Shown: positions 3,499 through 30,404 of the stretch, piece after piece
How the letters are laid out: each line of letters begins with the position of its first letter
Position numbering within the stretch: position 1 is the first letter of the stretch
Source of the DNA: an uncultured Myxococcales bacterium
GTDB taxonomy: Bacteria > Desulfobacterota > Binatia > UBA1149 > SPBQ01
Direction of reading: 5' to 3'
DNA: 63,346 bases
NCBI GenBank assembly: GCA_964478045.1
Contig: CAYZHO010000002.1
Location: 1 to 63,346 of the forward strand
Position numbers and translations under genes: made by a program
The notes under the pieces: generated by a model
What the model was told of the DNA's origin: nothing
What the model saw: the letters and a program-made list of their open reading frames with translations, nothing else
Databases searched by the model: none

Positions 3499-4113
3499 AT
3501 GCACAGCCCCCGCCCAAAGCGAACGATCAGCGCTCGGCGCGCGGCCGCCGGTTTCTTGCTAGCCCTTCTGCTCTCGGTTCCCGCCTGCACCACGCCCGAG
3601 CAACAGCTGTGGTGGAAGATGACGTTCTTCGACGGCGTTCCACCACCCGGACACGAAAAACTGGCGGAGGAAGAGCGCGAAGAGCGCGAGATGACGCCAG
3701 CGGCTCGGGCACTGGCGGCGCTGCGCGAAGCCAAACACCAAATTTCGCGACATGGCCCGTACGCGCAGAAGAAGTGCTCGCAGTGCCACGCCAGCGAATA
3801 CTCCAATCGCCTCAAAGCCCGGCCGCCGGAGTTGTGCTACCGCTGTCACGAAGTCGAAAGCTTTCCCGGAAAGTACCGGCACGGCCCTTTCCGGGCCGGG
3901 CTTTGCCTGGCTTGTCACGACCCGCATAGTTCGCCGAACGAAAAGCTGCTGCTGGCCGGGCGGGAAGAACTCTGCAGGACGTGCCACGACGCAACGACGT
4001 TCGCCCGTATCGACGAGCACGTCGCGCGCTACGGTGCCGATTGCCTCGCCTGCCACCGGCCGCATGCCGGCCCGCGGCCGAAGATGCTCCGGGAGGATGC
4101 CAAAACGTCGTGA
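3499..4113 (+). CDS. Pentahaem c-type cytochrome, probable lipoprotein
   Basis: Five CxxCH motifs (CSQCH, CYRCH, CLACH, CRTCH, CLACH). N-terminus FLLALLLSVPAC resembles a lipobox. A purine-rich RBS-like stretch (GGTGAGGTGAG) precedes the ATG. Confidence 0.85.
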   Translation: MHSPRPKRTISARRAAAGFLLALLLSVPACTTPEQQLWWKMTFFDGVPPPGHEKLAEEEREEREMTPAARALAALREAKHQISRHGPYAQKKCSQCHASEYSNRLKARPPELCYRCHEVESFPGKYRHGPFRAGLCLACHDPHSSPNEKLLLAGREELCRTCHDATTFARIDEHVARYGADCLACHRPHAGPRPKMLREDAKTS

Positions 4114-6152: not shown

Positions 6153-6253
6153 GCGGTGGTGGCTCATAGCACAATGGCGGCCGGACCCGCGGTTAAGGGC
6201 GAACCGGCCGGCTCGTTGCAGGACGGTTCAGAACAGAGCGTCGGAGGCCAAAA

Positions 6254-9042: not shown

Positions 9043-9061
9043 AGAAGCGACGCCAGCACGC

Positions 9062-11944
9062 TTACGCCCAGGGACGCTCGCGCCGCCGCTTCACGGGCTC
9101 GAGCTCGATGCGCGTGCCGCGGTCGTTCATTCCCGGCTCGCCCATGATCATGAGCGGCTGCAAGTGGTAGTAGCCGCCCGCCAACTGGATCGGGTTGAGC
9201 GGGGTTGCAACAATCGACTGGTGGGAGCGCCTGTGCTTGAACTGGTGCGGCTCCCACGCGTGGTAGACCGCCACCTGCCCGGGCCGCATGGACGGCGCGA
9301 TCTTCGCCTCGACCTCGAAGCTGCCCAGGTCGTTTCGAACGCGCACGAGATCGCCGTCTTCGATTCCGCGTTCGGCCGCGTCGCGAGGATGGATGAACGC
9401 TACCGGCCGCCCGCGCTGCAGCCGCAGCATCAGCGGATTGTCGCGCCAGGAAGCGTGGATCGACCAGCGGGTGTGGCCGCCGGTCATCTTGAGCGGATAG
9501 TCGCCGCCGATCGGCGGGTTGTCCTTGTGTACGGGTAGAACCTCACCGAGCTCGCGGTAGAACGGGTGATCGATGTAGAACTGCATCCGCCGCGTGAGCG
9601 TCGGCCACGGCTGCTTGTCGCGCACGTGCCAAGTGTTGGCCGTAATCGTTTCGTTCGGTTCGATGTCGGTGGCGTTTCCGATGTTGACCGGGCTGCTGCC
9701 AAGCGCGGTAAAGCGGGCGAACCCCTTCTCCTTCAGTTCGTCCCACGTCACGCCGCCGAGGTTCGTGTTCACCTCGAGAAGGGCCCGCAGGAACTCTTCA
9801 CCGTTTTCTTCCGTGTAGCGGCCGCCGTATGTCATCCGGTAATAGACTTGGTCGAGCCGGCGCTCTTTGCCGCTACGGTCCCGGAACGTGCGGATCCCGC
9901 GCTGCTTGGCGCGCTTCTCGATGTGCTTCATGAACAGGCAATGGATCGCCCAGTCTGACTTCGCCTCTCCAAGCGGCTCGACGGCTTTCGTCGTAACCTG
10001 GCAGAACGGCGCGTGAGGCGTGGCCCACGTGATGTCGTCGCGCTCGTACCAAGCGGCAGCTGGCAGCACGTAGTCTCCGTACAGTGCCGTCGTGCTCATT
10101 CGCCAGTCGACAACGACGAACAAGTCGAGGCGCGGCAAGAAGTTGTCGATCAGCTCCGGATAGCCCCGCACGCGCCGCAGGAAGTTGCCGCCGACCGAGA
10201 AGAAGATCTTGGGCTCTGTCTCGGGAACGACTTGCCATCCCTTTGCCTTGGCCTCGGCCAAGTACTCGGACATCTCGCGGGGCAAAGAGCGATCCCAGCG
10301 CTTGGCGCTTCCGGTGCGCGCTTGCATGCCGAACTGGTGGAAAAACAGGGGCGACGGCACGAAACCGCCACGCCGGTACTCCTCCCGGGCCTGTTCGACG
10401 AGGAACATCTCCCAGGTCTTCCCCTCGGCCTTTGCCTTTAGGATGGCCGGGGCCTTTTCCACGCCGAGTGCGATCATGCCGAGCTTGAGCGGCATCACGG
10501 GCGCCACTCCAGCCGCCTCGGGCGCTTCGACCGTCAGCCACGGGAAGGCGTTCATCCCCGCTCCTTTCTTGCCAATGTGGCCGCATAGGGCGAGGACGAG
10601 GATCTGCGCCCGCTCCATTTCCATGCCGTGGTAGTACTTCGAGAAGTTCGACTCGGTCATGATCGTCGCCGCGCGCGCTCGCCCGATCATTCGGGCGAGC
10701 TTGCGAATGAGCGACGGCGGCGTGCCGGTCACCTTGGCTGCTTCTTCGGGCTTGTAGCGGGCCAAGTGACGGCGCAGCCGCGCGAACACCGGTTCCACGG
10801 TGACCGGGCCGTCGGCCGTGCGGACCGTGAACTCTCCTTCGAGCGCCGGACGCCGGCCGCCAAGTTCGAGGGAGCGCCGCGGAGCCGGTTCGACGCGGTC
10901 GGCCGCTTCGTCGAAGAAGTAAAAGACGTCGTCCGCACCTCCTTTGGTGAAGTCCCGCTCCCGGAGCAGGAGCCCGTTGTCCTTGCGCACAAGCAGCGGC
11001 AAGTCGGTCTGTTCTCGGACGAAGTCCCGGTCGAAGAGGCCTTCCTCGATGATCACGTGCGCCAGCGACAGCCCAAGCGCCGCGTCGGTTCCCATCTCGA
11101 CCGGGACCCACAGATCCGAATGGATCGACGACGCACTGTAGTCCGGCGCGATCGTGACGACCGTTGCGCCATTATAGCGCGTCTCGGTCAGGAAGTGCGC
11201 GTTCGGAATCTGCGTGTAGATCGGATTGCCGCCCCAGATCAGTACCAAGTCCGAGTAGAACCAATCGTCCGCCGAGCTCGCGTAGCAGATCTTCCCCGTT
11301 GTAACCGCCGCACCGGGATGGTGGTCGCCGATCTCGGCGTTCGCGTCGAGCATGATACTGTCGAGGACGAAGTTGTTGCGGACAACACCGACGCCGTGGC
11401 CGCCGTTCGTAAAGGAGGTGCCGAAGTCCCAGTAGATCGAGCCAGGTCCGTCGGTGACCAGCACGTCGATCATCCGGTCCGCGATGTCGTCGAGCGCTTC
11501 CTCCCAGCTCACCCGTTTCCACCGTCCTTGACCGCGCCGCCCGACGCGCTTGAGGGGGTGCGTGATACGCCCCGGGTCGTACATGCGGTGGCTATAGCAG
11601 CCTCCTTTTTGGCAACCGCGCGGATTGTAGTCGGGAACGTCCGCGTTGGTCTGCGGGTAGATTCCAGCCTGTTCTTCGCGCAGAACCACCCCATCCTTGA
11701 CGTAGACGTTCCAGTTGCAGCCGCGCTGGTACCAGCAGTTAACGTGATGGGTCCCCTTGGCCACGCGGTCCCACTTCCAGCGCTCCCTGTAGACGTCCTG
11801 CCACTTCTCGTAGCGGACGGGCACCGGCGCGCCCGCGTGGGCGAAATCCGCCCGGAGCACCAGCCGCCCGAGGGTAAGCCCGAGTGCAGCCGCTCCGGTA
11901 GCCTGCAAGAACTGGCGGCGAGTGAGTTTCGTGGAATCCGTCAT
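9062..11944 (-). CDS. Type II DMSO-reductase-family molybdopterin oxidoreductase alpha subunit, EbdA/NarG-like, Tat signal (paralog A1)
   Basis: The ATG at 11944 (ATGA overlap with the A2 stop) gives MTDSTKLTRRQFLQATGAAAL. FS0-type motif HHVNC-x5-C-x34-C. Conserved blocks EQTDLPLLVR, WPTLTRRMQFYIDH, GGHTRWSIH. 960 aa. Confidence 0.88.
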   Translation of the reverse strand: MTDSTKLTRRQFLQATGAAALGLTLGRLVLRADFAHAGAPVPVRYEKWQDVYRERWKWDRVAKGTHHVNCWYQRGCNWNVYVKDGVVLREEQAGIYPQTNADVPDYNPRGCQKGGCYSHRMYDPGRITHPLKRVGRRGQGRWKRVSWEEALDDIADRMIDVLVTDGPGSIYWDFGTSFTNGGHGVGVVRNNFVLDSIMLDANAEIGDHHPGAAVTTGKICYASSADDWFYSDLVLIWGGNPIYTQIPNAHFLTETRYNGATVVTIAPDYSASSIHSDLWVPVEMGTDAALGLSLAHVIIEEGLFDRDFVREQTDLPLLVRKDNGLLLRERDFTKGGADDVFYFFDEAADRVEPAPRRSLELGGRRPALEGEFTVRTADGPVTVEPVFARLRRHLARYKPEEAAKVTGTPPSLIRKLARMIGRARAATIMTESNFSKYYHGMEMERAQILVLALCGHIGKKGAGMNAFPWLTVEAPEAAGVAPVMPLKLGMIALGVEKAPAILKAKAEGKTWEMFLVEQAREEYRRGGFVPSPLFFHQFGMQARTGSAKRWDRSLPREMSEYLAEAKAKGWQVVPETEPKIFFSVGGNFLRRVRGYPELIDNFLPRLDLFVVVDWRMSTTALYGDYVLPAAAWYERDDITWATPHAPFCQVTTKAVEPLGEAKSDWAIHCLFMKHIEKRAKQRGIRTFRDRSGKERRLDQVYYRMTYGGRYTEENGEEFLRALLEVNTNLGGVTWDELKEKGFARFTALGSSPVNIGNATDIEPNETITANTWHVRDKQPWPTLTRRMQFYIDHPFYRELGEVLPVHKDNPPIGGDYPLKMTGGHTRWSIHASWRDNPLMLRLQRGRPVAFIHPRDAAERGIEDGDLVRVRNDLGSFEVEAKIAPSMRPGQVAVYHAWEPHQFKHRRSHQSIVATPLNPIQLAGGYYHLQPLMIMGEPGMNDRGTRIELEPVKRRRERPWA

Positions 11945-14793
11945 ACGCGCTCGACCTCCACGGTCGTACCCCGCGGCGTGTGGTGCGGGCCCGCAAACAA
12001 GAAGCGATAGTGAAGCTGCCCGTACTCGGTCATGTGCAGCGCCTTCCAGGGAGAAGGAACGGGTTGCTGGTTGCTCTTCCAATCCTTGAACTGGTGCGGC
12101 TCCCAGGCGTGATAAATGATCAATTGGCCCGGCTGCACGGCCGGACTGATCTTGGCGAGCATCTCGCACGAGCCGACGTCGTTGTACACCCGGACCCGGT
12201 CGTTGTCCCGTATGCCCCGGCGCTTGGCGTCTTCCTTGCTCATGTAGAGCGCCGGCTCACCCCGCTGCAAGCGAAGCATGAGCGGTTCGTCGCGCCAGGT
12301 GGAGTGAATCGACCACCTCGTATGCCCGCCGGTCATTCGCAGCGGATAGTTGCCGCCCGCCGGCGGCGGCTCCTTGTGTACCGGCAACTCCTCGCCAGCT
12401 TCGAGGAACCACGGATGGTCGATGTAAAACTGCATGCGACCGGTGAGCGTGGGCCAGGGTTGCTTGTGCTGTACGAACCACTGGCACGGATAGATGGAGT
12501 CCTCGGGCTCCCAATCGCTGCAAATGTTCGTGTGGGTGCGGAAGGGCCCCAGCGCCTTGATCGGAACCGCTCCCTGCTCGGCCGCCTCTTTCCAAGAGAT
12601 GTAGCCCATCTCGGGCGACTCGCTGGCTGCGATTTCGTAGTAACGCAGGTCGTCGTCCGGATCGAACTCGCCGTCGTGCGACCAGCGGTCGTAAATCCGG
12701 GAAAAGTCGCGCGGGTTGCCGTGAGCATCCGGTACCTTTGAGATACCCCGGGCGCGGGCCTTCTCTTGGAGAATCCGAGCAACATCGCCCCAAATCTTCC
12801 ACTCTGTGCGCGACTCCCCTAGCGGAGGAACCCCCTGCTCGCCGACCATGTAGTACGGCACGTAACTCTGGGCGTACTTGATCCCGCGGCGCTCGTAGTA
12901 CCCAGCCGCCGGCAATACGATGTCCGACTTGAGCGCCGTCGCCGACATCTTGATGTTGACGCCGACGATCAAGTCGCACTTCGGCCACAGGGTCTTTTCG
13001 ATCACCTGAGGCGCAGGCCAGCGCCGCAGTGGATTCACCCTCGTGTGCACGAGGATGCGGGGCCGCTTTTCGCGGCGCGGGAATAACGGAACCCAGTTGT
13101 TCTCTACCGCTTCGTGCATGGCCTCGGGAAGCGGCTTGCCGGGCTTCGGATCGTGATAGCTGGGGTTGTCGACCACCTCGTTCAACCCGCCGTGGTGGTA
13201 CAGGAACATCAGCGCCGGCGTGTAGAGTTTGCTCTTCTCGTAGTCGCGGAAGTACTTGATGTATTCGCGGACGGTCGGCTTGAAGAGCTTGAGCAGCAAG
13301 CGCTGATACCAAGTCGGCTTCACTCCAGAGACCGCCGACTCGATGCTGCTCAACATGTACCACGCACCGATCTTCAGGCCCGTACCGCGGTAGCCGACGT
13401 TTCCCGTCAGCGCGAGAAGCAAGATGATGCCGCGCTGGAATAGGTCGCTGTGGTAATGCTTCATCGACCCCCACGACGCAAACATGTTGACGGCCTTCGC
13501 CCGGGCCATTTCGCGCGCCAACTCCCGGATCGTCTCGGCGCCCACGCCCGTAATACGCTCCACGCGCTCGGGCGTGTAGTCAGCGAGCCGCTTCTTGAGA
13601 TACTCGAACACCGGGCGTACCCGCACCGTCTCCCCGCTTGCCAACTTCACCTCGAAGCGGCCCTCGAGGGCGGGATCGAGATTGCCGAGAGCGAGCGTGC
13701 TGCGCCGGCCGAGCCCCTCGCTGCCGGGGGCCTTGGCCAAGCGACCACCGGCGAGGTCCCACAGGTAGAAGACGTTATCGGCTCCGCCTTTTTTGAGGTC
13801 CGATTCGCGCAGGAAGCGCCGCGTGTCTTCACGCACTAGCAAAGGCAAATCGGTTTGCTCCTTGACGTAGTGCGCTTTGTAGATTCCCTCGTCCACCATG
13901 ACCTTGGCCATCCCCAGGGCCAGGGCCGCGTCGGTTCCGACGCGCAGGTTGATCCATTGGTCTGCGTGGATCGTCGAGGCGTTGTAATCGGGTGCGACGC
14001 TGATCACCTTGGCGCCGCGGTAGCGGGCCTCCCAGAAGAAGTGCGCTTCAGGAATGCGCGTGTACGAAGGATTGCCCAACCAGATGAAGATGAGGTCGGA
14101 TCGGACGAAGTCGTCGGCTGTCCCGTCCGTATTGAAAAGCCCCCACGTCATGATCACGCCGAGCGGCATGTCGCCCACCGTCGCCCAACCGTCGAGCTGG
14201 GTTGCACCAATGTAGTCGAAGAACGACATTTCGCCCGACGTCGCGGCACCGTAGCCGGCATTTGCGGTACCGCTCTCGTGGATGATGCACTCGGGGCCGT
14301 CCTCGCGGATGACCTCGAGCATCTTTTCCGTAATCTCTTCGTAGGCTTCCTCCCAGGTAATGCGCTTCCACTTCCCGGAGCCACGCGGCCCAACCCGCTT
14401 TACGGGATACTTGAGCCGCTGCGGGCCGTACATCACCTGGCTGAAGCAGGCCCCCTTTTGGCAGCCGCGCGGATTGTAGTCGGGCAAGTCGGTCGCCCGC
14501 GCCTTCATGATCGCATTCTGCTCTTCGCGCCAGACGATTCCGTCTTTGATGTACAGAACCCAAGGGCATGCCGAGGCGCAGTTGGCCACGTGGTGCGTCG
14601 CGTTGACGACCTTATCCCAGGTCCACTTCTGCCGGTACACGTCCTCCCAAGACGCATAACCCCGGCCGCCGGTGGCGCCTCGCGCACCGCGCGCTCGCGC
14701 CTTTTGCGGTACGGCCAATCGTAACTGGAGCAACGAGAGGGTCAGTACCGCCGATCCTTTGAGGAACGTGCGCCGTGTCAGCCGATCCTTCAT
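11941..14793 (-). CDS. Type II DMSO-reductase-family molybdopterin oxidoreductase alpha subunit, EbdA/NarG-like, Tat signal (paralog A2)
   Basis: MKDRLTRRTFLKGSAV Tat motif. H-x3-C-x3-C-x34-C (HHVANCASAC...NPRGC). Blocks EQTDLPLLVR, WPTLTGRMQFYIDHPWF, GGHTRWSIH. AAGGAG RBS upstream. Confidence 0.9.
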   Translation of the reverse strand: MKDRLTRRTFLKGSAVLTLSLLQLRLAVPQKARARGARGATGGRGYASWEDVYRQKWTWDKVVNATHHVANCASACPWVLYIKDGIVWREEQNAIMKARATDLPDYNPRGCQKGACFSQVMYGPQRLKYPVKRVGPRGSGKWKRITWEEAYEEITEKMLEVIREDGPECIIHESGTANAGYGAATSGEMSFFDYIGATQLDGWATVGDMPLGVIMTWGLFNTDGTADDFVRSDLIFIWLGNPSYTRIPEAHFFWEARYRGAKVISVAPDYNASTIHADQWINLRVGTDAALALGMAKVMVDEGIYKAHYVKEQTDLPLLVREDTRRFLRESDLKKGGADNVFYLWDLAGGRLAKAPGSEGLGRRSTLALGNLDPALEGRFEVKLASGETVRVRPVFEYLKKRLADYTPERVERITGVGAETIRELAREMARAKAVNMFASWGSMKHYHSDLFQRGIILLLALTGNVGYRGTGLKIGAWYMLSSIESAVSGVKPTWYQRLLLKLFKPTVREYIKYFRDYEKSKLYTPALMFLYHHGGLNEVVDNPSYHDPKPGKPLPEAMHEAVENNWVPLFPRREKRPRILVHTRVNPLRRWPAPQVIEKTLWPKCDLIVGVNIKMSATALKSDIVLPAAGYYERRGIKYAQSYVPYYMVGEQGVPPLGESRTEWKIWGDVARILQEKARARGISKVPDAHGNPRDFSRIYDRWSHDGEFDPDDDLRYYEIAASESPEMGYISWKEAAEQGAVPIKALGPFRTHTNICSDWEPEDSIYPCQWFVQHKQPWPTLTGRMQFYIDHPWFLEAGEELPVHKEPPPAGGNYPLRMTGGHTRWSIHSTWRDEPLMLRLQRGEPALYMSKEDAKRRGIRDNDRVRVYNDVGSCEMLAKISPAVQPGQLIIYHAWEPHQFKDWKSNQQPVPSPWKALHMTEYGQLHYRFLFAGPHHTPRGTTVEVERV

Positions 14794-14836: not shown

Positions 14837-15904
14837 TTACGAGCGGGCGGGCAGTTTGGCCGGATTCTGTGTGAAATCGGGAAAGATCTGTTCCGGCCAC
14901 TTGTAGACCACGAGAGTGTCGAGGATCTCCGAGCGCTCGCCCCGCCGCACCCGCTCGAGCTCCGCTTGCAGCGTCGCGAGTGCTTCATCTACGCCTGGAC
15001 CGAACAAGCTGCGGAGGTACTCGGTCGGAATGCGCGGCCGGCTGCGATCAGGGTTGCCGTCCGGCCCGATCCGCGGCGGCGCAAGTGGAGGAACGTAGTA
15101 CACGTTCGGCTCGGTGTTGAACTCGGGGTGCAGCGGCAGCGCTACTTTCCACAGCTTCACGAGCTTGTAGATCGGACCGTTCGGATCGTCGAGATAGCCG
15201 ACGAAGCGCAGTCGCCCCGGGCACTGGCGGGCGCATGCCGGCGCCACCCCTTTTTCGAGGCGCGGGAAGCAGAAAATGCACTTCTGCGCGATCTTTCGCT
15301 TGACGTTAAAGTAAATCCGCTTGTACGGGCACGCTTCCATGCAGAACCGGTAGCCCCGGCAACGGTCTTCGTTGATCCGGACAATCCCGTCCTCCTCGCG
15401 CTTTTCGATCGCACCGCGGGGACATGCCTCGAGGCATGCGGGATGGGTACAGTGGTTGCAGATCCTGGGCAGGTAGAAGTAATAACAGTTGGGATAGTCT
15501 CCGGCGCCTTGGTCCTCGTCCCAGTTGGGCCCCCACTCAGGCTTTCTCCCTTGGGGCGCCAAATGTGCTTCCTGGCCTTTGCCCCCGTAGAAAACCTCTT
15601 CATAGTTGAACTGCCAGGCAACGCCGAAGTCTTCCATAGTCGGCAATTTCCCCGGACGCGGTACGCCCTCCCGGTCGAAGCCGCCTCCGGACTTCTCCCA
15701 GTCGCGCGGGGTGCCTCGACCGGGCATGGTGTTTACGACCGTCCACCACATGCCCTCCATTCCTTCCTCGCGCGTCCACAGGGTCTTGCATGCGATCGTG
15801 CAGGTCTGACAGCCAAGGCACTTGTTGAGATCGAAGACCATGGCGAGTTGATGGGCACTGCCCGTCGCGCCTTTTCTCCGGCGTCGCTGGGTTACGTCGG
15901 CCAT
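14837..15904 (-). CDS. NarH/EbdB-like iron-sulfur (beta) subunit, four Cys clusters (B1)
   Basis: CLGCQTCTIAC, CNHCTHPACLEAC, CRGYRFCMEACP and CIFCFPRLEKGVAPACARQCP Cys groups. 355 aa. GGGAGGA RBS. Very similar to 29343-30404. Confidence 0.92.
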   Translation of the reverse strand: MADVTQRRRRKGATGSAHQLAMVFDLNKCLGCQTCTIACKTLWTREEGMEGMWWTVVNTMPGRGTPRDWEKSGGGFDREGVPRPGKLPTMEDFGVAWQFNYEEVFYGGKGQEAHLAPQGRKPEWGPNWDEDQGAGDYPNCYYFYLPRICNHCTHPACLEACPRGAIEKREEDGIVRINEDRCRGYRFCMEACPYKRIYFNVKRKIAQKCIFCFPRLEKGVAPACARQCPGRLRFVGYLDDPNGPIYKLVKLWKVALPLHPEFNTEPNVYYVPPLAPPRIGPDGNPDRSRPRIPTEYLRSLFGPGVDEALATLQAELERVRRGERSEILDTLVVYKWPEQIFPDFTQNPAKLPARS

Positions 15905-15966
15905 CTGGTCCTCCCTTCGGCGCGCGCCCCGGCCTCCCGCGGGGGCAGCAGCCGGCGCGAGCTGTC

Positions 15967-15980
15967 CAAACGAACGTTTG
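15967..15980. promoter_or_regulatory. Inverted repeat CAAACG-AA-CGTTTG in an AT-rich divergent intergenic region (candidate operator)
   Basis: Read directly from the sequence. It lies in the most AT-rich stretch of the 15905-15998 spacer, between the B1-A2-A1 operon and the kinase gene. Confidence 0.3.
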
Positions 15981-15998
15981 TTTGTTTTTAGCTGCTAG

Positions 15999-17192
15999 TT
16001 GCCTGTATTGCAAGGGATTTCTCCGATCAGCGCACGCTGCAGGGTCGTTTTGCGTTGGCTCGAACAGCCCTTTAAAGAAGTCGAGCGCCTGCCGGGTGGC
16101 CGCCCAACGAGCGGAGAACAAGCAACATTGAGCGAACGGAACGCGCCTCGAACGGACGAGCAGATTCTCGCGGGCATCGAGCAGTTTCTGCGGGCCCGCC
16201 TGCCTGAGCGAAGCGGGCTCAAGGTCACCGGGCTCAAAAAGCACACGGAAGGATTTTCGCTGGAAACCTACTCGTTCGACGTCGAGTGGCACGAAAACGG
16301 GGGCAGGCGCACCGAGAGGCTCGTGGTTCGCAAGGAGCCGCCCGCGGGACTCCTCGAACCCTACGATCTCGAGCCGCAGTACCGCGTCCTCGCCGCCTTG
16401 GCCGACACCCCCGTGGTAGCCCCGCGCGTGCTGTGGTTCGAATCGGACCCGTCTTTTCTCGGTGCTCCCTTCTACGTCATGGAGTGGGTCGAGGGGGAGG
16501 TCCCGCTTCCGATCCTCGACGAAGACGGGGGGCTGCCGATTCGCGACGATGCGGTTCGCGAGAGCGTCGGGCGTGACTTCGCGCGGATTCTCGCGGCAAT
16601 CCACACCGTGGACTGGCGCGCCAAGGAGCTTGACTTCCTCGGAGCTCCCCGCGACGGGCGGGATGCGGCCGAGCGCGCGGTCGACACGTGGGCGGGCTAC
16701 ATCGAGCGGGCCCGTCTCGGCCCCTTGCCGATGCTCACGTACGCGCTGGGATGGCTGCGGCGGCATTTGCCGCGCGAGGCACCCATCACGCTCGTCCACG
16801 GCGACTACCGTACCGGCAACTTCATCATGCGCGCAGGCCGGATCGTCGCCTTCCTCGACTGGGAGATGGTCCACCTGGGCGATCCGATGGAAGACGTGGC
16901 CTGGAGCGTCTCGCGAATTTGGCGCGGTGAATCTGGGCTGGCCGGCCACTTGATCGAACGAGAGCGGCTGTTCGAGTGGTACCGCGAAGCCGGCGGCCAC
17001 GAAGTCGACGAGGAACGCGTGCGTTTCTATGAAGTTCTCTCGGGCGTCAAGATGGCCGCGATCATGCTCACCGGGATCAAGGCTTGGCACGACGGGCGAA
17101 CCCGTGACATGCGCATGGGATTCTTCGATCAGCAGTTGGCGGGAATGCATGCGATCATCGCGGACGCGATGGGCTTGATCCAACTTCCATAG
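15999..17192 (+). CDS. APH-family phosphotransferase (aminoglycoside/choline-kinase-like kinase fold)
   Basis: Catalytic-loop motif HGDYRTGNFIM (HxDxxxxN) and FLDWEMVHLGDPMEDVAW. The start is uncertain. The listed start is a TTG at 15999. An in-frame TTG at 16128 preceded by GGAGAA is an alternative. Confidence 0.75.
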   Translation: MPVLQGISPISARCRVVLRWLEQPFKEVERLPGGRPTSGEQATLSERNAPRTDEQILAGIEQFLRARLPERSGLKVTGLKKHTEGFSLETYSFDVEWHENGGRRTERLVVRKEPPAGLLEPYDLEPQYRVLAALADTPVVAPRVLWFESDPSFLGAPFYVMEWVEGEVPLPILDEDGGLPIRDDAVRESVGRDFARILAAIHTVDWRAKELDFLGAPRDGRDAAERAVDTWAGYIERARLGPLPMLTYALGWLRRHLPREAPITLVHGDYRTGNFIMRAGRIVAFLDWEMVHLGDPMEDVAWSVSRIWRGESGLAGHLIERERLFEWYREAGGHEVDEERVRFYEVLSGVKMAAIMLTGIKAWHDGRTRDMRMGFFDQQLAGMHAIIADAMGLIQLP

Positions 17193-17214
17193 CGAAGATC
17201 GACTCGGGCAAACG

Positions 17215-17709
17215 ATGAACGTACTCGACCTTGACGAGATGCTTTCGGGAATCGTCCGTACGCTGGACGAACAAGTCGGGCCGCACGTAGCGGCCGGCCC
17301 CGCACGGGCCCAGCTGTACGCCTCTCTCGACCTGCTGAACAATCTCGCATCGAAACTCGAATGGAAGCGCGAACTCTTGCAGGCGGAGGGCGACGGCATC
17401 GCCGCCGCGCTACAGCAAGTCGCCGATGTCCTGTCGGGAACCCCCAGCCTTCCCCAACCGCTGGCTACGCTCTCGGAAGAAGCGCAGCGGCTTGCTTCGA
17501 GCCCCGACCGCACGGACGATCCGCTGGCCTGGTGCCGGCGTTGCAACGAGGTTCTCGAGCGCGCGATCGTTGCCCTCGACGAAGCAAACCTCGACGAACA
17601 GGCTGCGGCTAGTGCCCGAGCGGCAATCGAAGGCTACCTGGTCAATCAGACCATCCGGGATTCCATGTTCATCAAGCCAATGATGCTGAAGAAAATCTCG
17701 CAAGGATGA
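17215..17709 (+). CDS. Hypothetical helical protein (164 aa), co-oriented with the kinase
   Basis: Compact ORF 22 nt after the kinase stop. Codon usage is consistent with neighbouring genes. No motif recognised. Confidence 0.5.
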   Translation: MNVLDLDEMLSGIVRTLDEQVGPHVAAGPARAQLYASLDLLNNLASKLEWKRELLQAEGDGIAAALQQVADVLSGTPSLPQPLATLSEEAQRLASSPDRTDDPLAWCRRCNEVLERAIVALDEANLDEQAAASARAAIEGYLVNQTIRDSMFIKPMMLKKISQG

Positions 17710-17731
17710 ACCGCCGAAGAGGAGAAGGACG

Positions 17732-18673
17732 ATGATCAGCGCCACCGACATGATCAGCCCGCAGGACGATCGCCGCCACGCACCAGGACCGGAGTCGCTG
17801 CCACTGTGGAGCGAAAGCTATTGGTTCCCCGTCTACGACCCCAAGACTCAGACGGGGGTGGTCACGCGCATCGGCATTTTGCCCAATCAAGGGCGGGCGA
17901 CCTTGTGGATGTTCATCTCTCACGAGGGGCGAATCGTCCACAACGCCACCGACTTGAACTGCCCGCTGCCCCAGGGAGACATCGACGAACTGCGGGTCGG
18001 CAACGTCACCTACCGCTGCCTCGAGCCGCTGCGCAAGTGGCGGCTCACTTACGACGGTGGCGACTACGGCATGGACCTTCTGTGGGAAGCGATATGCCCC
18101 GTCTACCAGTACCCGCCTCCGCCGGGGACGACCGTGGACCAGGCCGCGCGCCACATCGAGCAGTCGGGCCGGGTGCGCGGCACCGTCCGGGTCGCTGGCA
18201 AGGACGTTTCGGTCGACTGCTTCGGTCACCGCGACCATTCCTGGGGAGGCGAGCGAGACTGGTCGAAACTGGCGACCTGGACCTACATCTCGTGTGAGGT
18301 AGACGAGCGCCTCAGCTTCAACGCCGTACAAATCTGGTTTGGGCCGGAGACGAGTTTCAAAGTCGGATTCTTCTGGGACGGCCAAGACGTGATGGGTCTT
18401 TCGGACCTCGGGGCGACCATCCACACGAACGAAGATCGCACCGTGCAGCGCGGCGCCTCGCTGTGGCTGGTCAACGAGAAAGGACAGCGTTACGAGGTGC
18501 GCGGCGAAGTCATCGACGTCTGCCCTGTGCGGATCGGCCCCACGCAGGTAAACGACGCCATCACCAAGTTCCAGGTTGGCGACCGGGTCGGCTATGGGAT
18601 TATCGAGTACGGCTACCAGACCGACGCCGCCGGCAAGCCGGTCGGTGTCGAACCGGCACTAGGACTCGGCTGA
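17732..18673 (+). CDS. Hypothetical protein (313 aa), beta-rich, HRDHSWGGERDW motif
   Basis: ORF 22 nt after the previous gene. Motifs SESYWFPVYDP and GHRDHSWGGERDWS resemble uncharacterised families often adjacent to APH-like kinases. No confident family assignment. Confidence 0.5.
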   Translation: MISATDMISPQDDRRHAPGPESLPLWSESYWFPVYDPKTQTGVVTRIGILPNQGRATLWMFISHEGRIVHNATDLNCPLPQGDIDELRVGNVTYRCLEPLRKWRLTYDGGDYGMDLLWEAICPVYQYPPPPGTTVDQAARHIEQSGRVRGTVRVAGKDVSVDCFGHRDHSWGGERDWSKLATWTYISCEVDERLSFNAVQIWFGPETSFKVGFFWDGQDVMGLSDLGATIHTNEDRTVQRGASLWLVNEKGQRYEVRGEVIDVCPVRIGPTQVNDAITKFQVGDRVGYGIIEYGYQTDAAGKPVGVEPALGLG

Positions 18674-18704
18674 ACAACCGGAAGAGCCGGCGGCCGAGAT
18701 CGGG

Positions 18705-20048
18705 TCAGCCGCCGGCGCCCGCCGGTGCCTGTGCGGACTCGAGATCGTTGTACGCCGTGGCGGTAAAGAAGTCTCCCCGCTTCTTGCAGCCACGAACGGT
18801 TACGAGGAACTGGTGCGAATCCGCGGGAATCGTGCCCTCGAACAGCACGGTCATGCGCGTACCGTCGATCTTCTCCTTGACCGTGAGATCGCTGTCCTGC
18901 GGCTTCTCCTCCATTCCCGGTCCTCTGGACAGCAGGACCACCGGCTTTTCTCCTTTTTTCCACCGCCATACGTAGGCCGGCTCTCCCTTCGTCCCTAGGT
19001 CGAACGTGCGCTCGCGCTGGCCGAGCGCCCAGTAGACCTCCGCCTGGGGACACGTGTTCTCGCCGTCGTCCCAACTGATCAAGAGGCCGATCCGCTGGCC
19101 TTCCCGGACCGCCCGGACCGAAATCGGCTCGTAGTGCTGCATCCAGCCTCCGCGAATGGCCAAGCGATCGAGTTCAACGGGAGTGGCCGACTTCCAAACC
19201 GGTGCGCCGACGTCGTCCGCCAGCTTGCCCGCCACCACTGGAACCGCGCCTCGGCTGGCCTGCTTTACGTCGCGGCGCTCCTTGGCAAAGGACAGTACGT
19301 AGTGCGCGATCGCCCAGCGTTCCTCCGGGGTCATGACCTCTTTCCAAAACCCCGTCATCGGGGTGCCGTCGAGCCCGGTCAGAATGCGCATGTAGATGTC
19401 TTCCGGTTTGTTGCCCCCCTTGTAGACCCCCACCTCGAAACTGCGAGGGTGCAAGGGCTGCCCCCAGTTGTCGAGCATTTCTTCGGGCTTCTTTCCGTCG
19501 CCCTTGCCGGTTTTGCCGTGGCACTGATCACACCCGACTTTGACGTACAGCTCGGCACCCCGCTTGAGTTCCTCGGGGGTCACCGGCGGCTCGGGCGGCG
19601 CTTTTTCTCCCGGCGGGACTTCGTAAAGCTCGAACCAGCTTCCTTCTTCTCCTTCGGGCCCGCCGAGCGTCTTGATGTAGGCAACCACGTCACGAATCGC
19701 TTGCTCGCCGAGATGGCGGAACGACGGCATCCCCGTACCCGGCATGCCGTTGGTGACCGTCCGGATGAGGTCTTCGTCGGTCGGAAGCTCTCCGGTCTGG
19801 GTCGAGCGAATCTTGAAGAGCCCCGGCCGAAAATCACGCGGGCGCGGATCGAAGAGCGCCGCGCCGGGACCATCGCCCCAACCTTTCGAACCGTGGCAAA
19901 ACGCGCAGTGGTGCTCGTAAATCGCCGCCCCAGCTTTCGGATCGCCTACCTCGGCGCGCGCGGCCGCGGCAACGAGGACGCCGAGAATCAGCGCCGCAAA
20001 CGCGCCCGCTAGCAACGGATGACGTTTCGCCCCAACGTTCTTCGTCAT
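18705..20048 (-). CDS. Dihaem c-type cytochrome fused to a C-terminal EB_dh-like (EbdC-related) domain, secreted
   Basis: The ATG at 20048 (ATGA overlap with the chaperone stop) gives MTKNVGAKRHPLLAGAFAALILGVLVAAAARA. Two class-I-like haem sites (CAFCHG, CDQCHG). The C-terminal ~180 aa align by eye with the gamma subunit at 30425-31075 (VREGQRIGLLISWDDGENT versus CHDGSKLYIRLEWKDPTEN). Confidence 0.75.
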   Translation of the reverse strand: MTKNVGAKRHPLLAGAFAALILGVLVAAAARAEVGDPKAGAAIYEHHCAFCHGSKGWGDGPGAALFDPRPRDFRPGLFKIRSTQTGELPTDEDLIRTVTNGMPGTGMPSFRHLGEQAIRDVVAYIKTLGGPEGEEGSWFELYEVPPGEKAPPEPPVTPEELKRGAELYVKVGCDQCHGKTGKGDGKKPEEMLDNWGQPLHPRSFEVGVYKGGNKPEDIYMRILTGLDGTPMTGFWKEVMTPEERWAIAHYVLSFAKERRDVKQASRGAVPVVAGKLADDVGAPVWKSATPVELDRLAIRGGWMQHYEPISVRAVREGQRIGLLISWDDGENTCPQAEVYWALGQRERTFDLGTKGEPAYVWRWKKGEKPVVLLSRGPGMEEKPQDSDLTVKEKIDGTRMTVLFEGTIPADSHQFLVTVRGCKKRGDFFTATAYNDLESAQAPAGAGG

Positions 20049-20725
20049 TTCTTGACCGGTCCCTCCGTCGAGATGAGATAAGTCATATCGGCGCGGCAGT
20101 ACGTATCGGCGAGCTCGATCATCGCACGCCAAAAGGGATGGGCGTCGATCTTTGCGAGCTTCGCAACCGCCTTCGGCAACCACCGCGCCGGGTGCCGTGC
20201 GAGGAAGTCGCGCGCCGCTCGCCGCAGGGACCCCGGATCCTCCCCGTTGCGCAACGCTTCGACTTCTTTGAACGTGAGGAAATGCAGGAACTCCAATTCT
20301 GCCGTCAAGTGATCCGGCAGGTCGCGTTCCTTGGAAGAAATCGTAAGTCCAAAGTACCGGTAGAAGCGCAGGGCTTCCTCCATCACTCGCTGCCGGTCTC
20401 CACCCCAAACGCCGCCGTACAGAGGCACTGGAGGGCCACCCATGCCAACGTCGAACAGGCCGACGTAGGCCGACTGGAACTCGTCGTAGTCTTCGTCGAC
20501 CTTTTCGAGTTCGGGCCACAAGCGGTCGACCCCCTCTAGAGAATACGGAAGGTGAGCGATCACCGAGCGCGCGGCCGGGATCATCTCTCCCGACCGGGCG
20601 AACTCGTGGAAGTCCTGCCACGGAAAACTCAGCCACGAAGCCAGATACTGGTAGAGCGTGCTGCGCGCCGCCGCTGCCCGCTCGGGGCCTTCGCGAATCG
20701 AATCGATGGTTGCGATCTCGGTCAT
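20045..20725 (-). CDS. TorD/NarJ/EbdD-like redox-enzyme maturation chaperone
   Basis: 226 aa. Family-like pattern: YVGLFDVG..GPPVPLYGG, ALRFYRYFGL, LPDHLTAELEFLHFL. GAGGGAGAA RBS. Confidence 0.8.
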   Translation of the reverse strand: MTEIATIDSIREGPERAAAARSTLYQYLASWLSFPWQDFHEFARSGEMIPAARSVIAHLPYSLEGVDRLWPELEKVDEDYDEFQSAYVGLFDVGMGGPPVPLYGGVWGGDRQRVMEEALRFYRYFGLTISSKERDLPDHLTAELEFLHFLTFKEVEALRNGEDPGSLRRAARDFLARHPARWLPKAVAKLAKIDAHPFWRAMIELADTYCRADMTYLISTEGPVKK

Positions 20726-20745: not shown

Positions 20746-23559
20746 TCAGGCGACGCGTTCGACTTCGACTTTCGTGTCGCGGTCCACTTGCCCGGGTTCG
20801 TAGTGCGCGTACGACCAGCCCAGGTGACCGTACTCTCCCGCCAGTTGCGTGACTTTGAGCGGCGCCGGCGCCAGGTGCTGGTGGCTGCGGCGTCCGGCGA
20901 ACTGGAACGGCTCCCAGGCGTGGTAGACGAGGACGAACCCCGCCGGCATCGTCGCCACCACCTTGGCTCGCGCCCTGACCTCGGTCAAGTCGTTATAGAT
21001 TCGGACTTCGTCATGATCCTCGATCCCCCGCCGCCGCGCGTCCTCCGTTCCGATCAGGACGACCGGCTCGCCGCGCTGCAGGCGCAACATCAAGCGGTGA
21101 TCGCGCCAGATCGCATGAATCGACCAGCGGGCGTGACCGCCCGATAGGGTGAGCGGATAAGGCCCTCCAGCGGCGGGAGGAGCTTTATACCGGGGCAGCG
21201 CTTCGTCGAGCTCGAGGAACCACCGGTGATCCACGTAAAACTGCTGGCGTCCCGTCAGCGTCGGATAGCGCCGGCGCTTCTCGGAAAACCACCGCATCGG
21301 GACAATCGGCTCGTCGGGAGAATAATCCGAGTAGATCCCTGCAGTCCCCCCCTGCTGTCCTAGGCTGCGGATGCGCTGGTGGCCGCGCTCGCGCAGTTCG
21401 GCCAAACTCGTTCCCCGCGACACGCTCGAAACCGACAGAATGAAATCGGCCAGTGCCTCTTCGTCGTCCGCACCGAAACGCCCACCATCGCTGAAGGCAG
21501 CGCCTATCTCATCGAGCCTGCGCGTCTCGCCCAAGTAGTCCCGGTACTCGCGCACGCCTTGCTCTTTCGCCTTGCGGGCAACTCGCTCGGCAAGCCGGTG
21601 GAAGATCCACCACTCGGGACGCGACTCGCCCTGCGGCTCGACCGCTCGATCCGCCAGCGTCACGTAGGGAATCATGCCCGGGATGTACTTGAACCCCACT
21701 CGCTCGTACCAGGCCGCCGCGGGCAAGACGATGTCGCTGGCCAAGGCGGTCTCGCTCATCCGAAAGTCGACCGTTACCACGGTCTCGATCTTCGGCCACA
21801 AGCGCTCGCGCAGGAGGTCGCCGCTACGCGAGTGGCGGAGCACGTTTCCAAATACGGCCAAAGCGAACTTTGGAGTGGGCGCGCGCTTTACCGGAAACCA
21901 CCCGCGGTCGAGAGCCTCGCGAACGTAGGCGTCGACCTCGCGCGGCATGGCCGGATCCCCAAACGCACGGCGCCCGCTGCGCTCGCCGAGCTCGCCGTGC
22001 ACGTAGTGCCACAAGCCCGAAGGTACGAAATAACGGGAGAAGTCGGCAATGTTTTCTTCCGGATCGCGAAAATAACTGCGCGTTGCCAAGAGCAACAGGT
22101 CGACCAGGCCGAGGTCGCGCTGCATGGCCAGCACGGCCAGTCCTTCCATCATCACAAAGGCGCCCGAGCGCCACCCGCCTCCGGTCCTGCCGATGTTGCC
22201 CGTGACCGAAGCCAGTAGAATCTGCGAGCGCTGGAGCAGATCCGAGTGGTAGAACTTGCACGATCCGTACTGGGACAAGATCAGGGCGCGCGGAGCCGAG
22301 GCGAACTCTCGGGCAAAACGCCGGATCGTCCCGGCCGACACTCCCGTAATGCGAGCTGCTCGCTCAGGCGTATATTCGGCATCGAGCCGCCGCCGCAGCC
22401 GGGCCATGACCGGCTCGACTTCGACCCGCCGGCCGTCGCGCAGTCGCACCTTCCAGCGGCCCTCGAGCGCGGGGCGCAACGACCCGAGGGCAAGGCTGTC
22501 CGAGCGCAGCCCGTGGCTGCCCGGAGCGGGCGCAACTCGGCCGCCCGCCTCGTCCCACAAGAAGAATACTTCTTCGCTGCCCCCGTCGACTAGATCAGCT
22601 TCGCGCAGGAATCGGTCGTTGTCGGCCCTGACGAGCAACGGAAGGTCGGTTTGCTCGCGCACGTAGTCGGCATCGTACAATCCCTCAGCCAGGATCACTT
22701 GCACCGCGGCCAACGCCAGGGCGGCATCGGTTCCCGGTCGCGGGTTGATCCAAAGGTCGGCGTGGATCGCCGAAGGGCTGTAGTCGGGCGCGATCGCAAC
22801 TACCCGCCCTCCGCGGTAGCGCAACTCAGTGAGAAAGTGCGCGTCTGGAATCCGCGTCACGACTGGATTGAACGCCCACAGAACGACGTAGTCCGAGCGA
22901 AACCAGTCGTCCGAGCTCCCGTCGGTGTGCGCCGTTCCGAGCGTAATCGTCCCCCCGAAGGCAACGTCCCCGATCATCGCCATCGAGTCGGTAATCGGCG
23001 CGCCGAGCATCTTGAAGAAACGCAACGGCGCCGCCGTATGAGGCCCGAAGTCCATCTCTGGCCCCAGTTCGGCAATCAGGCCGTCGCCCCCGGCCTCGCG
23101 AACGGCCTCGACGATAGCCTCCGCGCAGCGGTCGAGCGCTTCGTCCCAGGATATGCGCTTCCAGCGGCCCTCTCCGCGGCGGCCGATCCGCACGAGCGGA
23201 TACGTGATTCGCGTGGGCCCGATGAACAAGTCGCTCGCGCACGCGCCTTTTTGACAGCCGCGCGGATTGAAGTCCGGGCACTGCCCGCACCCGTCCCCGT
23301 ACGTGCCGGCCTGCTCTTCGCGCCATACGATTCCGTCGCGCACGTAGAGCTTCCACGCACACGCCGACACGCAGTTGGCGTTCGCGTGGGTGCCGTTGAC
23401 CACCCGGTCCCACCTCCACCGCTCGCGATACAAGTCGCGCCAATCTCCGTAGGACGGCGGGACCGAGACCATCGCACGCGGCCGCGCGAAGGCCAAGCGC
23501 GAAAAGACGAGACTCGCCACCCCAAGCGCACCCGCCTTGAGAAAGGTGCGCCGGTTCAT
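20746..23559 (-). CDS. Type II DMSO-reductase-family alpha subunit, EbdA/NarG-like, Tat signal (paralog A3)
   Basis: The listed ORF runs to 24246 through A4. The ATG at 23559 gives MNRRTFLKAGALGVASLV. Motif HANANCVSAC...NPRGC. Blocks EQTDLPLLVR, YPTLTGRQQFYVDH, GGHARWSIH. 937 aa. Confidence 0.88.
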   Translation of the reverse strand: MNRRTFLKAGALGVASLVFSRLAFARPRAMVSVPPSYGDWRDLYRERWRWDRVVNGTHANANCVSACAWKLYVRDGIVWREEQAGTYGDGCGQCPDFNPRGCQKGACASDLFIGPTRITYPLVRIGRRGEGRWKRISWDEALDRCAEAIVEAVREAGGDGLIAELGPEMDFGPHTAAPLRFFKMLGAPITDSMAMIGDVAFGGTITLGTAHTDGSSDDWFRSDYVVLWAFNPVVTRIPDAHFLTELRYRGGRVVAIAPDYSPSAIHADLWINPRPGTDAALALAAVQVILAEGLYDADYVREQTDLPLLVRADNDRFLREADLVDGGSEEVFFLWDEAGGRVAPAPGSHGLRSDSLALGSLRPALEGRWKVRLRDGRRVEVEPVMARLRRRLDAEYTPERAARITGVSAGTIRRFAREFASAPRALILSQYGSCKFYHSDLLQRSQILLASVTGNIGRTGGGWRSGAFVMMEGLAVLAMQRDLGLVDLLLLATRSYFRDPEENIADFSRYFVPSGLWHYVHGELGERSGRRAFGDPAMPREVDAYVREALDRGWFPVKRAPTPKFALAVFGNVLRHSRSGDLLRERLWPKIETVVTVDFRMSETALASDIVLPAAAWYERVGFKYIPGMIPYVTLADRAVEPQGESRPEWWIFHRLAERVARKAKEQGVREYRDYLGETRRLDEIGAAFSDGGRFGADDEEALADFILSVSSVSRGTSLAELRERGHQRIRSLGQQGGTAGIYSDYSPDEPIVPMRWFSEKRRRYPTLTGRQQFYVDHRWFLELDEALPRYKAPPAAGGPYPLTLSGGHARWSIHAIWRDHRLMLRLQRGEPVVLIGTEDARRRGIEDHDEVRIYNDLTEVRARAKVVATMPAGFVLVYHAWEPFQFAGRRSHQHLAPAPLKVTQLAGEYGHLGWSYAHYEPGQVDRDTKVEVERVA

Positions 23560-23573
23560 CGCCAGTCCCTCTC

Positions 23574-26429: not shown

Positions 26430-26464
26430 CGTCTCGCTCCCTATTGTGCCTTCGCGCCGGCTTG

Positions 26465-29329: not shown

Positions 29330-29342
29330 GGCCGCACCCCGC

Positions 29343-30404
29343 TCAGGCGCTTCGGCCCCACTCGATCGTCGACGGATCCCTCTTCCAGGCGAACATGTCG
29401 AGCCAGCGCCGCGAAATCAGGATGTCCATCAGTTCGGACTTTCCACCCGCGCGGGTCTTGGCCATCTCGGCCTTGAGGACCGCTAGAGCCTCGTGGACCT
29501 TCGGGCCGAACAAGTACTCGAGATACTCGTTCGGAATCCGCGGCTGGCTCTCGTCGATCTCGCCGTTCTCGTCGAGCCGCGGCGGTGCCAGCGGCGGCAC
29601 ATAGTAGACGTTCGGCTCGGTACCGAACTCGGGATGGAGGGGAATCGCCACCTTCCATTTGTAGACGAGCTTGTAGATCGGCCCATCCTGGTCATCGAGG
29701 TAGCCAGCGAACCGCACCCGGCCGGGGCACATGCGGGCGCAAGCCGGGGCCACGTCCTGGTCCACTCGCACGAAGCAGAAGATGCACTTCTGCGCGACCT
29801 TGCGCGCGTGGTTGAAGTAAATCTTCTTGTACGGGCACGCCTCCATGCAGAAGCGGTAGCCCCGGCAGCGGTCTTCGTTGATCAGGACGATCCCGTCTTC
29901 CTTGCGCTTCTCGATCGCATGGCGCGGGCACGCGTCCAGGCACGCCGGGTGCGTGCAGTGGTTACAGATGCGCGGCAGGTAGAAGAAGTAGCTGTTCGGA
30001 TACTCGCCGCCGCCCTGGTCTTCGTCCCAGTTCGGACCCCACGTCGGGTTGCCCTCGGGCTTGAGATGCACCTTGTTGCCCTTGCCGCCGTAGAAGACTT
30101 CTTCGTAGTTGAACTTCCATGCTTCACCGAAGTCTTCTCGGGTCGGGAGCTTTCCGGGCCGCGGAATCCGGTCTTTGCCTTCGACCTTGAACCCGCCGCC
30201 CATCTTTTCATAGTCGCGCGGCGTACCCCGCCCGGGCTGCGTGTTCACCGTGGCCCACCACATGTACTCCATCCCTTCGTCGCGGGTCCACAGGCGCTTG
30301 CAGGCGATGGTGCACGTTTGACACCCCAGGCATTTGTTGAGGTCGAAGACCATCGCCACCTGGTGGGCAGGCCCCTGCTTTTCGCTCTTTCGCGTCCTAG
30401 GCAT
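29343..30404 (-). CDS. NarH/EbdB-like iron-sulfur (beta) subunit, four Cys clusters (B2)
   Basis: CLGCQTCTIAC, CNHCTHPACLDAC, CRGYRFCMEACP and CIFCFVRVDQDVAPACARMCP. 353 aa. GGAAGGAG RBS. Close paralog of B1. Confidence 0.92.
   Translation of the reverse strand: MPRTRKSEKQGPAHQVAMVFDLNKCLGCQTCTIACKRLWTRDEGMEYMWWATVNTQPGRGTPRDYEKMGGGFKVEGKDRIPRPGKLPTREDFGEAWKFNYEEVFYGGKGNKVHLKPEGNPTWGPNWDEDQGGGEYPNSYFFYLPRICNHCTHPACLDACPRHAIEKRKEDGIVLINEDRCRGYRFCMEACPYKKIYFNHARKVAQKCIFCFVRVDQDVAPACARMCPGRVRFAGYLDDQDGPIYKLVYKWKVAIPLHPEFGTEPNVYYVPPLAPPRLDENGEIDESQPRIPNEYLEYLFGPKVHEALAVLKAEMAKTRAGGKSELMDILISRRWLDMFAWKRDPSTIEWGRSA

Follow-up and report, generated by a model that had tools for sequence, protein, structure and literature searches.

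A kinase, a lyase-like protein and a helical protein encoded between molybdenum hydroxylase operons: a probable ATP-dependent alcohol-dehydration module in an uncultured Myxococcales bacterium

Introduction

What does a small-molecule kinase of the APH family do, together with two smaller proteins, between two operons encoding molybdenum (Mo) hydroxylases related to ethylbenzene dehydrogenase (EBDH)? The locus that raises this question lies on contig CAYZHO010000002.1 of an uncultured Myxococcales bacterium (assembly GCA_964478045.1), of which positions 1 to 63,346 of the forward strand were analyzed and are called the window below. Three genes on the + strand form what we call the triad: the kinase K (open reading frame, ORF, 15999-17192), the all-helical protein M (17215-17709) and the two-beta-barrel protein L (17732-18673). 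They are real genes and not chance ORFs: the Pfam scores of K and L are significant, and conserved homologues of all three stand in the same order in other genomes.

A biochemical precedent comes from Sterolibacterium denitrificans. There, S25DH hydroxylates C25 of the sterol side chain with water and an APH-like kinase, 25-hydroxysteroid kinase (25-HSK), phosphorylates the tertiary alcohol; a lyase then removes the phosphate to give a delta-24 alkene, of which S26DH hydroxylates the allylic C26, and the genome encodes eight alpha-subunit paralogues (PMC7411048, PMC8449060, PMC11061730). In this organism the Mo enzymes work in the periplasm, whereas the step that uses ATP takes place in the cytoplasm (PMC7411048), and the surroundings of the kinase gene hold no candidate for the lyase (PMC8449060). 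It is so far the one organism in which a tertiary alcohol is documented to be dehydrated at the expense of ATP between two Mo-catalyzed hydroxylations with water.

An earlier note on the present DNA had proposed that the triad might provide an analogous kinase/lyase step, linking two of the Mo-enzyme alphas into a cascade. Homology and co-occurrence, as laid out below, support that proposal, which stays a prediction from sequence. We consider it fairly probable, though by no means assured, that the triad encodes a cytoplasmic ATP-dependent alcohol-dehydration module serving the neighboring Mo hydroxylases of the EBDH/S25DH type. The basis for this reading is homology, fold, gene order, gene fusions, co-localization and a predicted periplasm/cytoplasm split; from these we infer the phosphorylation/elimination chemistry, the link to particular alphas, the class of substrate and the role of M.

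Results

L resembles 25-phosphosteroid lyase in sequence and modeled fold

L (313 aa; 17732..18673, + strand) matches the Pfam families DUF7065 (71.1 bits against a threshold of 27, E 1.7e-19) and DUF7064 (60.8 bits against 24.7, E 2.2e-16). Compared with the sequences of the PDB, its only significant match is the 25-phosphosteroid lyase (25-PSL; entries 9fzn, 9g2i and 9g4c, released in January 2026; phmmer E 3.8e-5), and a profile of the 23-member L family matches 9fzn at E 8e-12. An AlphaFold (AF2) model of L, built with the family alignment, is all-beta with a predicted local distance difference test score (pLDDT) of 94.5 and a predicted template-modeling score (pTM) of 0.91. When this model was compared with the PDB by Foldseek, the same three 25-PSL entries came out on top (template-modeling score on the query, TMq, 0.70-0.71, E ~1e-13, best 5.5e-14), among them 9g4c, the entry with phosphate and product bound, followed by kievitone hydratase and AttH and then by the pericyclases Fsa2, Phm7 and CghA. 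Structure-based identity between L and 25-PSL is ~16%, and an R-D-x-S-W-G motif is common to both. The link between the two proteins rests on the L-family profile, on NCBIfam and on the fold, not on Pfam DUF7065. By these sequence and model comparisons L is judged to be a remote homologue of 25-PSL, in a sister family, and we annotate it as a putative phospho-alcohol (C-O) lyase. A literature search on DUF7065, DUF7064 and Rv3169 found no functional study.

Separately from this assignment, we note a set of L residues, H141, E143, H166, D168, H169 and E292, that is invariant even in distant archaeal and actinobacterial homologues lacking an adjacent kinase, with Arg, Ala or Ser at such positions in 25-PSL. 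This His/Glu/Asp cluster could be a metal site.

Kinase and L are adjacent or fused across related loci

The L alignment was scanned against one genome per GTDB species, which yielded 78 loci (numbered with the prefix L and three digits below), the nearest relatives being those of uncultured Myxococcales metagenome-assembled genomes (MAGs) at 84% and 78% identity. Forty-nine loci carry an L at least 37% identical to that of the window, and after setting aside four that are cut by a contig end, 45 are informative. An APH kinase stands directly upstream of L, is fused to it or, in one locus (L007), is adjacent on the opposite strand in 35 of the 45.

The forms that this association takes are themselves informative. 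K, M and L are separate genes, as in the window, in L001-L005, L009-L011, L013 and L047. Twelve loci (L017, L019-L025, L027, L031, L039 and L049) have a fusion of K with an SCP2 domain followed by L, and a further seven have K and L with nothing between. In five more (L029, L040, L042, L044 and L045, at about 8000-10900 in each locus) the whole set is a single polypeptide of ~770 aa with the architecture APH-SCP2-DUF7065-DUF7064; for the one in L029 the Pfam E-values are 3.7e-28 for APH, 2.5e-13 for SCP2, 1.8e-11 for DUF7065 and 8e-17 for DUF7064. Such fusions are classical evidence that two proteins act consecutively, and they imply this for kinase and L. The SCP2 domain, identified from sequence, indicates a lipid or sterol-like substrate in these relatives. 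Both the single-polypeptide architecture and the APH-SCP2 fusion followed by L appear not to have been described before.

The kinase and its helical partner

K (354 aa; 16128..17192, + strand, within the longest ORF, which runs from 15999) is a member of Pfam APH, PF01636 (131 bits against a gathering threshold of 23.2, E 6e-38), with the catalytic loop HGDYRTGN and the Mg-binding LDWEM (DWE) both present. Its solved relatives in the PDB are 3dxp, 3ats, 9o56, 9fsg and the kinase domain of ACAD11. To 9fsg, deposited as 'aminoglycoside phosphotransferase-like protein', it shows ~31% identity (88 bits). The kinases of the SCP2-fused relatives have 9fsg (163 bits, E 7e-47) and Rv3168/3ats (E 1e-43) as their top PDB matches. 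From the deposit name and from entry codes near those of 25-PSL we suspect that 9fsg is 25-HSK, in which case these kinases would connect the L family with the lineage of 25-HSK-type kinases. The kinase of ACAD11 phosphorylates a hydroxyl group, enabling elimination of phosphate to an alkene (PMC11342911), and 9fsg, if it is 25-HSK, would be a second solved relative of K with such a role.

M (164 aa; 17215..17709, + strand) has no Pfam match and no PDB sequence match. Its AF2 model consists of five helices (pLDDT 82.5), and no PDB fold matches this model significantly (best E 0.4). Weak sequence matches to methenyl-THF cyclohydrolase (E 0.004) and MCE (E 0.005) were judged to be chance. The N- and C-terminal segments are strongly conserved, the latter ending ...NQTIRD...ISQG. 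An exhaustive HMMER search (E <= 1e-3) of 1.84 billion proteins gave 143 representative clusters of M-family proteins, all standalone and mostly ~150-170 aa, and an APH kinase is adjacent to M in 17 of 17 contexts examined. Among these 17, the seven that come on top of the loci of the L scan have L adjacent in three cases and kinase and M without L in one, and three are contigs too short for a judgement on L. Because the context with kinase and M lacks a DUF7065/7064 gene, M tracks the kinase and not the lyase, and M is a kinase partner. That context (L080, 2394-4128) continues after the M-family gene with DHquinase_II, AccB and AccC.

The C-terminal kinase extension of ~110 aa in relatives was considered as a fused M; this was rejected, as the M profile gives no match there and Pfam identifies the extension as SCP2. 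M and SCP2 are positional analogues, not homologues. Since M sits where relatives have a fused lipid-binding SCP2 domain, we infer that it helps to bind or hand over a hydrophobic substrate, or that it holds the enzymes to the membrane. The earlier note's 'two unknown proteins' are thus a homologue of 25-PSL and, in M, a new accessory protein associated with the kinase.

Co-occurrence with Mo enzymes and other hydroxylases

The earlier note had proposed to look for co-occurrence of the triad with EbdA-like genes, and across genomes such co-occurrence is seen. EbdA-like alphas (38-84% identity over >900 aa) lie within 10 kb of the K-L pair in 7 of the 35 loci, spread over three phyla: L001, L002 and L003 in Myxococcales or 'Deltaproteobacteria', L007 in Thermodesulfobacteriota, L017 and L029 in Dehalococcoidia, and L019 in Chloroflexota, where an EbdB-like gene is present too. 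The equivalent count among kinase-less loci is 0 of 43 (Fisher p = 0.0025, for two sets that differ in taxonomy), one of which has a weak partial match (30% over 253 aa) to another molybdopterin enzyme. In L003 the association is within one operon: alpha-alpha-alpha-delta-cytochrome c-K-M-L-alpha run on one strand, with junctions of 3 nt or overlapping.

Pfam annotation of the 242 ORFs that neighbor the 35 K-L loci found 11 P450s, 7 SDRs, 7 AMP-binding CoA ligases, 7 luciferase-like oxygenases, 5 NMO and 5 TetR proteins. A P450 gene comes directly after L in L022, L025 and L039. Frame 10000-12180 of L022 was considered as an L-P450 fusion, a candidate we rejected, as the frame holds the P450 alone, a separate gene directly downstream of L. 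Taking Mo enzymes and P450s together, a C-H hydroxylase of either type is the typical neighbor of the K-L pair. P450 genes recognizable by the haem loop FGxGxHFCLG adjoin the K-L pair, often directly downstream of L, in about 12 loci other than those with EbdA-like alphas (L014, L016, L021-L025, L027, L034, L039, L040, L044 and L045). They suggest that the Mo-hydroxylase association has a counterpart which depends on oxygen.

Discussion

The sequence of events that we have in mind is the following. An alpha exported by the twin-arginine translocation (TAT) route would use water to hydroxylate a hydrophobic substrate, probably one that resembles an isoprenoid or a sterol, to a (tertiary) alcohol. 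The alcohol would reach the cytoplasmic face of the membrane and be phosphorylated there by K at the expense of ATP, L would eliminate the phosphate to leave an alkene, and a second alpha paralogue would hydroxylate the resulting allylic carbon.

Several findings weigh against this reading and need to be set beside it. K is ~30% identical to 9fsg, Rv3168, 3dxp and 9o56 alike, with no preference; the homology to the S. denitrificans pair that the earlier note had asked about holds for L (pairwise, by profile and by fold, with a template-modeling score of 0.71), while K is an APH relative of 9fsg, the presumed 25-HSK, but no closer to it than to other APHs. On the NCBIfam model Rv3169_fam (NF053593) L scores 88.7 bits (E 3.7e-25), under the cut-off of 150, whereas a stretch of 151 aa from 25-PSL, taken out of the alignment, scores 212.5 bits on it and has no Pfam DUF7065 match; it is because of these scores relative to the cut-off that 25-PSL is placed in the Rv3169 family and L in a sister family. 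The L-family invariants E28, S29, H141, E143, H166 and H169 are D, R, R, A, S and R in 25-PSL, and because of these replacements the catalytic machinery of L may differ from that of 25-PSL. The L invariants also persist in distant homologues without a kinase within 10 kb, and conserved residues do not separate kinase-linked from kinase-less homologues; the loci were fetched with two of the L motifs, and conservation in those columns is biased to that extent. No steroid-ring degradation genes were found in the window. Finally, 28 of the 35 K-L loci have no Mo enzyme within 10 kb, and P450s, SDRs, CoA ligases and luciferase-like oxygenases are commoner K-L neighbors than Mo enzymes.

The last of these points would suit a more general role, in which K-(M)-L is a cassette for dehydration of lipid or terpenoid alcohols with no specific tie to Mo enzymes, its position in the window following from the clustering of catabolic genes and its alcohol coming from, for instance, P450s or hydratases; the P450 ORFs, often directly downstream of L, and the recurrence of SDR, AMP-binding, luciferase-like, NMO and TetR genes would fit as well. 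What speaks against it is the Mo-alpha adjacency in three phyla, in-operon in L003 and absent from the 43 kinase-less controls, and, in the window, a triad that lies between two Mo operons and has a 223-bp divergent control region in common with one of them. We regard this explanation as unlikely, if the one that deserves most thought among the alternatives.

The residue pattern of L invites a different reading, in which L would form or rearrange an alcohol, either as a hydratase/isomerase like AttH, CrtC and kievitone hydratase or as a pericyclase, while the kinase acts on the product of L or on something else (for activation, export or regulation). The fold class does include cofactor-free hydratases and Diels-Alderases, and the invariant His/Glu cluster, which differs from 25-PSL and is kept where no kinase is adjacent, would speak for it as well. 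Against this stand the closest relative of L by both sequence and structure, which is 25-PSL, the single APH-SCP2-L polypeptides, which speak for steps that follow one another on the same lipid substrate, and the only characterized pairing of an APH kinase with an L-related protein, which is one of kinase then lyase (PMC8449060; PDB 9g4c title). A hydratase or pericyclase function seems to us distinctly improbable.

That K is an antibiotic-resistance APH or a 4-hydroxyacyl-CoA kinase of the ACAD10/11 type with two unrelated passenger genes downstream, for which the Pfam APH assignment, the PDB matches 3dxp ('putative acyl-CoA dehydrogenase' kinase domain) and ACAD11 and the similar HGDYRxxN loop might be cited, can be nearly dismissed: K scores 39.2 bits on the APH(3') model NF033068 where the cut-off is 205, the window has no acyl-CoA dehydrogenase (ACAD) nearby and only 3 of the 242 neighboring ORFs are ACADs, and the K-M-L order is conserved with tight spacers and fusions, such that neither of the contexts which the earlier note had named as contrary to its proposal is what we see.

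Returning to the phosphorylate-and-eliminate module serving Mo hydroxylases, it would, if correct, have several implications. What is new here relative to S. denitrificans is a diverged kinase/lyase pair that is genetically joined, even fused with a sterol-carrier domain, found repeatedly beside EBDH-type genes in several uncultured phyla and accompanied by a new accessory protein. In soils and sediments, K-L loci would serve to mark, at the level of the genome, a breakdown of isoprenoid or sterol side chains that needs no oxygen, and the module would give a rationale for the many alpha paralogues. In the P450-linked variants the same logic may operate aerobically. K, M, L and the alphas of paralogue groups I and II, described below, are concrete candidates for biochemical reconstitution.

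A bolder extension, which we offer tentatively and do not ourselves expect to hold in full, would make K-(M or SCP2)-L an unrecognized cassette for phosphorylation and elimination that is widespread among uncultured Myxococcota, Binatia, Chloroflexota and Thermodesulfobacteriota. Teamed with EBDH-type Mo enzymes or with aerobic P450s, the cassette would shift a hydroxyl group from the tertiary to the terminal carbon of isoprenoid-type lipids; L would have a His/Glu, possibly metal-dependent, active site unlike that of 25-PSL, and the kinase would have in M a new obligatory subunit that takes the place of SCP2.

Comparison with known systems

The closest parallel is the pair 25-HSK (SDENChol_21286) and 25-PSL acting between S25DH and S26DH of S. 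denitrificans, likewise an APH-family kinase with a two-barrel lyase-type protein. In both organisms there are several TAT-exported EBDH-family alphas, with the hydroxylases predicted to be periplasmic and the ATP step cytoplasmic. The differences are that the window K is only ~30% identical to its solved relatives, that L belongs to a sister family, that a third conserved gene, M, is added, and that in the window the genes for kinase and lyase form one cluster, together with the Mo operons; the host, moreover, is Myxococcales-like and not a betaproteobacterium.

A second pair, that of Mycobacterium tuberculosis Rv3168 (APH; which we take to be the protein of 3ats) and Rv3169 (NF053593), presumably encoded by adjacent genes, likewise unites a kinase with an Rv3169-type protein. 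The window proteins fall outside that subfamily, however, and the mycobacterial side has no Mo enzymes. ACAD10 and ACAD11 share with K the APH-type kinase, the similar loop and the logic of phosphorylating and then eliminating (PMC11342911); there, in contrast, an ACAD domain eliminates on a CoA thioester, while the window triad has no ACAD and the partner of its kinase has an AttH-like beta-barrel fold. AttH, CrtC and kievitone hydratase have the same double beta-barrel fold as L (Foldseek E ~1e-10, template-modeling score ~0.6), but add water without ATP or phosphate and are ~13% identical to it in sequence. The reactions of kievitone hydratase and its fold class take place at the tertiary carbon in the end group of an isoprenoid.

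Gene arrangement and surroundings of the triad

The three co-oriented genes with 22-nt spacers that the earlier note described, head-to-head with what it called the B1-A2-A1 operon, are confirmed at the level of ORFs and spacers (17193-17214 and 17710-17731), and its motifs, HGDYRTGNFIM and DWEMVHLGDPMEDVAW in the kinase and GHRDHSWGGERDW in the beta-rich protein, were all found in the translations. The second spacer, before L, carries the ribosome-binding site GAGGAGAAGGA. Head-to-head with the triad is an EbdB-EbdA-EbdA operon, and tail-to-tail with it a second Mo-enzyme operon ending at 18705. K most likely starts at the TTG at 16128, the same start as that of the 354-aa NCBI gene call P0121, with GGAG 12 nt upstream. 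With this start, a 223-bp divergent intergenic/promoter region (15905..16127) extends to the EbdB-like gene with its ATG at 15904 (- strand). It contains a palindrome, CAAACGAACGTTTG, at 15967-15980 (through 15984 with the trailing TTTG), which is conserved together with two further blocks of the region in the relative L001 and has no second copy in the window. We consider the palindrome a candidate operator, perhaps for the MarR regulator encoded at 34727-35227 (- strand; Pfam). A sigma-70 promoter scan of 15850-18800 found no promoter. Between the convergent L and cytochrome genes lies a GC-rich hairpin with 12-nt arms and a 7-nt loop (18686..18716), a possible bidirectional terminator; the terminator scan gave matches at chance level only, the hairpin having no T-tract and hence going uncalled.

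All genes of the divergent Mo operon are on the - strand. First comes an EbdB-like Fe-S beta subunit of the type II DMSO-reductase family (14837..15904; TIGR03478 517 bits, above cut-off; EbdB model E 2e-138), then an EbdA-like Mo-bis-MGD alpha (MGD, molybdopterin guanine dinucleotide; 11941..14793; NCBIfam and Pfam; TAT motif TRRTFL), whose top PDB match is the ethylbenzene dehydrogenase alpha 2ivf (E 2e-185), and then a second EbdA-like alpha (9062..11944; TAT motif TRRQFL), the ATG of which overlaps the upstream stop codon. A 61%-identical orthologue of this second alpha lies near the K/L pair of L007, a Thermodesulfobacteriota MAG.

The convergent Mo operon, also on the - strand, ends with a dihaem cytochrome c that has a signal peptide (18705..20048; Pfam Cytochrom_C/CBB3) and whose C-terminal region is weakly like EbdC, the haem b-binding gamma (TIGR03477, E 0.003); its counterpart in L003 sits 3 nt ahead of the kinase. 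By an ATGA overlap the cytochrome gene is translationally coupled to that for an EbdD-like delta chaperone for Mo enzymes (20045..20725; TIGR03482 163 bits, above cut-off). Further Mo-enzyme genes, assigned by Pfam, are three EbdA-like alphas (20746-23559, 23574-26429 and 26465-29329) and a second EbdB-like beta (29343-30404), all within a block at 20746..30404, followed by an EB_dh gamma subunit (30425-31075), a cytochrome b561-like protein (31066-31758) and a sixth alpha (31695-34730), all on the - strand, and a seventh alpha on the + strand (35455-38289). The Mo-enzyme set of the window, with seven alphas, two betas, a gamma, a delta and a cytochrome c, thus includes at least two TAT-motif alphas of the EBDH family.

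The seven alpha paralogues share pairwise identities of 36-53% and fall into group I (the alphas at 9062, 26465 and 35455), group II (11941, 23574 and 20746) and group III (31695). Each of the two operons that flank the triad combines alphas of groups I and II, a pairing that would be compatible with two regiochemistries. The twin-arginine motif [ST]RRxFL is present in all seven alphas, and a signal peptide is absent from K, M and L; the alphas are predicted to be periplasmic and the triad cytoplasmic.

Directly upstream of the Mo cluster, at 143-9042, multihaem c-type cytochromes (paired CXXCH, MtrC/MtrF-like) are interleaved with NHL-repeat beta-propeller proteins and a TPR/AhpC-like protein, a block that may serve, outside the cell or in the periplasm, as an electron-transfer chain taking electrons from the hydroxylases. 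On the other side, Glyco_transf_21, YdjC, B12-binding radical SAM and LPG_synthase_TM genes (38402-42325 and 47629-48606) adjoin the cluster; they resemble, as we presume, the hopanoid side-chain genes hpnI, hpnK, hpnJ and hpnL. Toward the end of the window, a 2283-aa protein with SpvB, TcdB-mid, FG-GAP and RHS repeats (56383-63234) is Tc/Rhs toxin-like, and MacB-type ABC and OEP efflux genes lie near it at 49876-54289.

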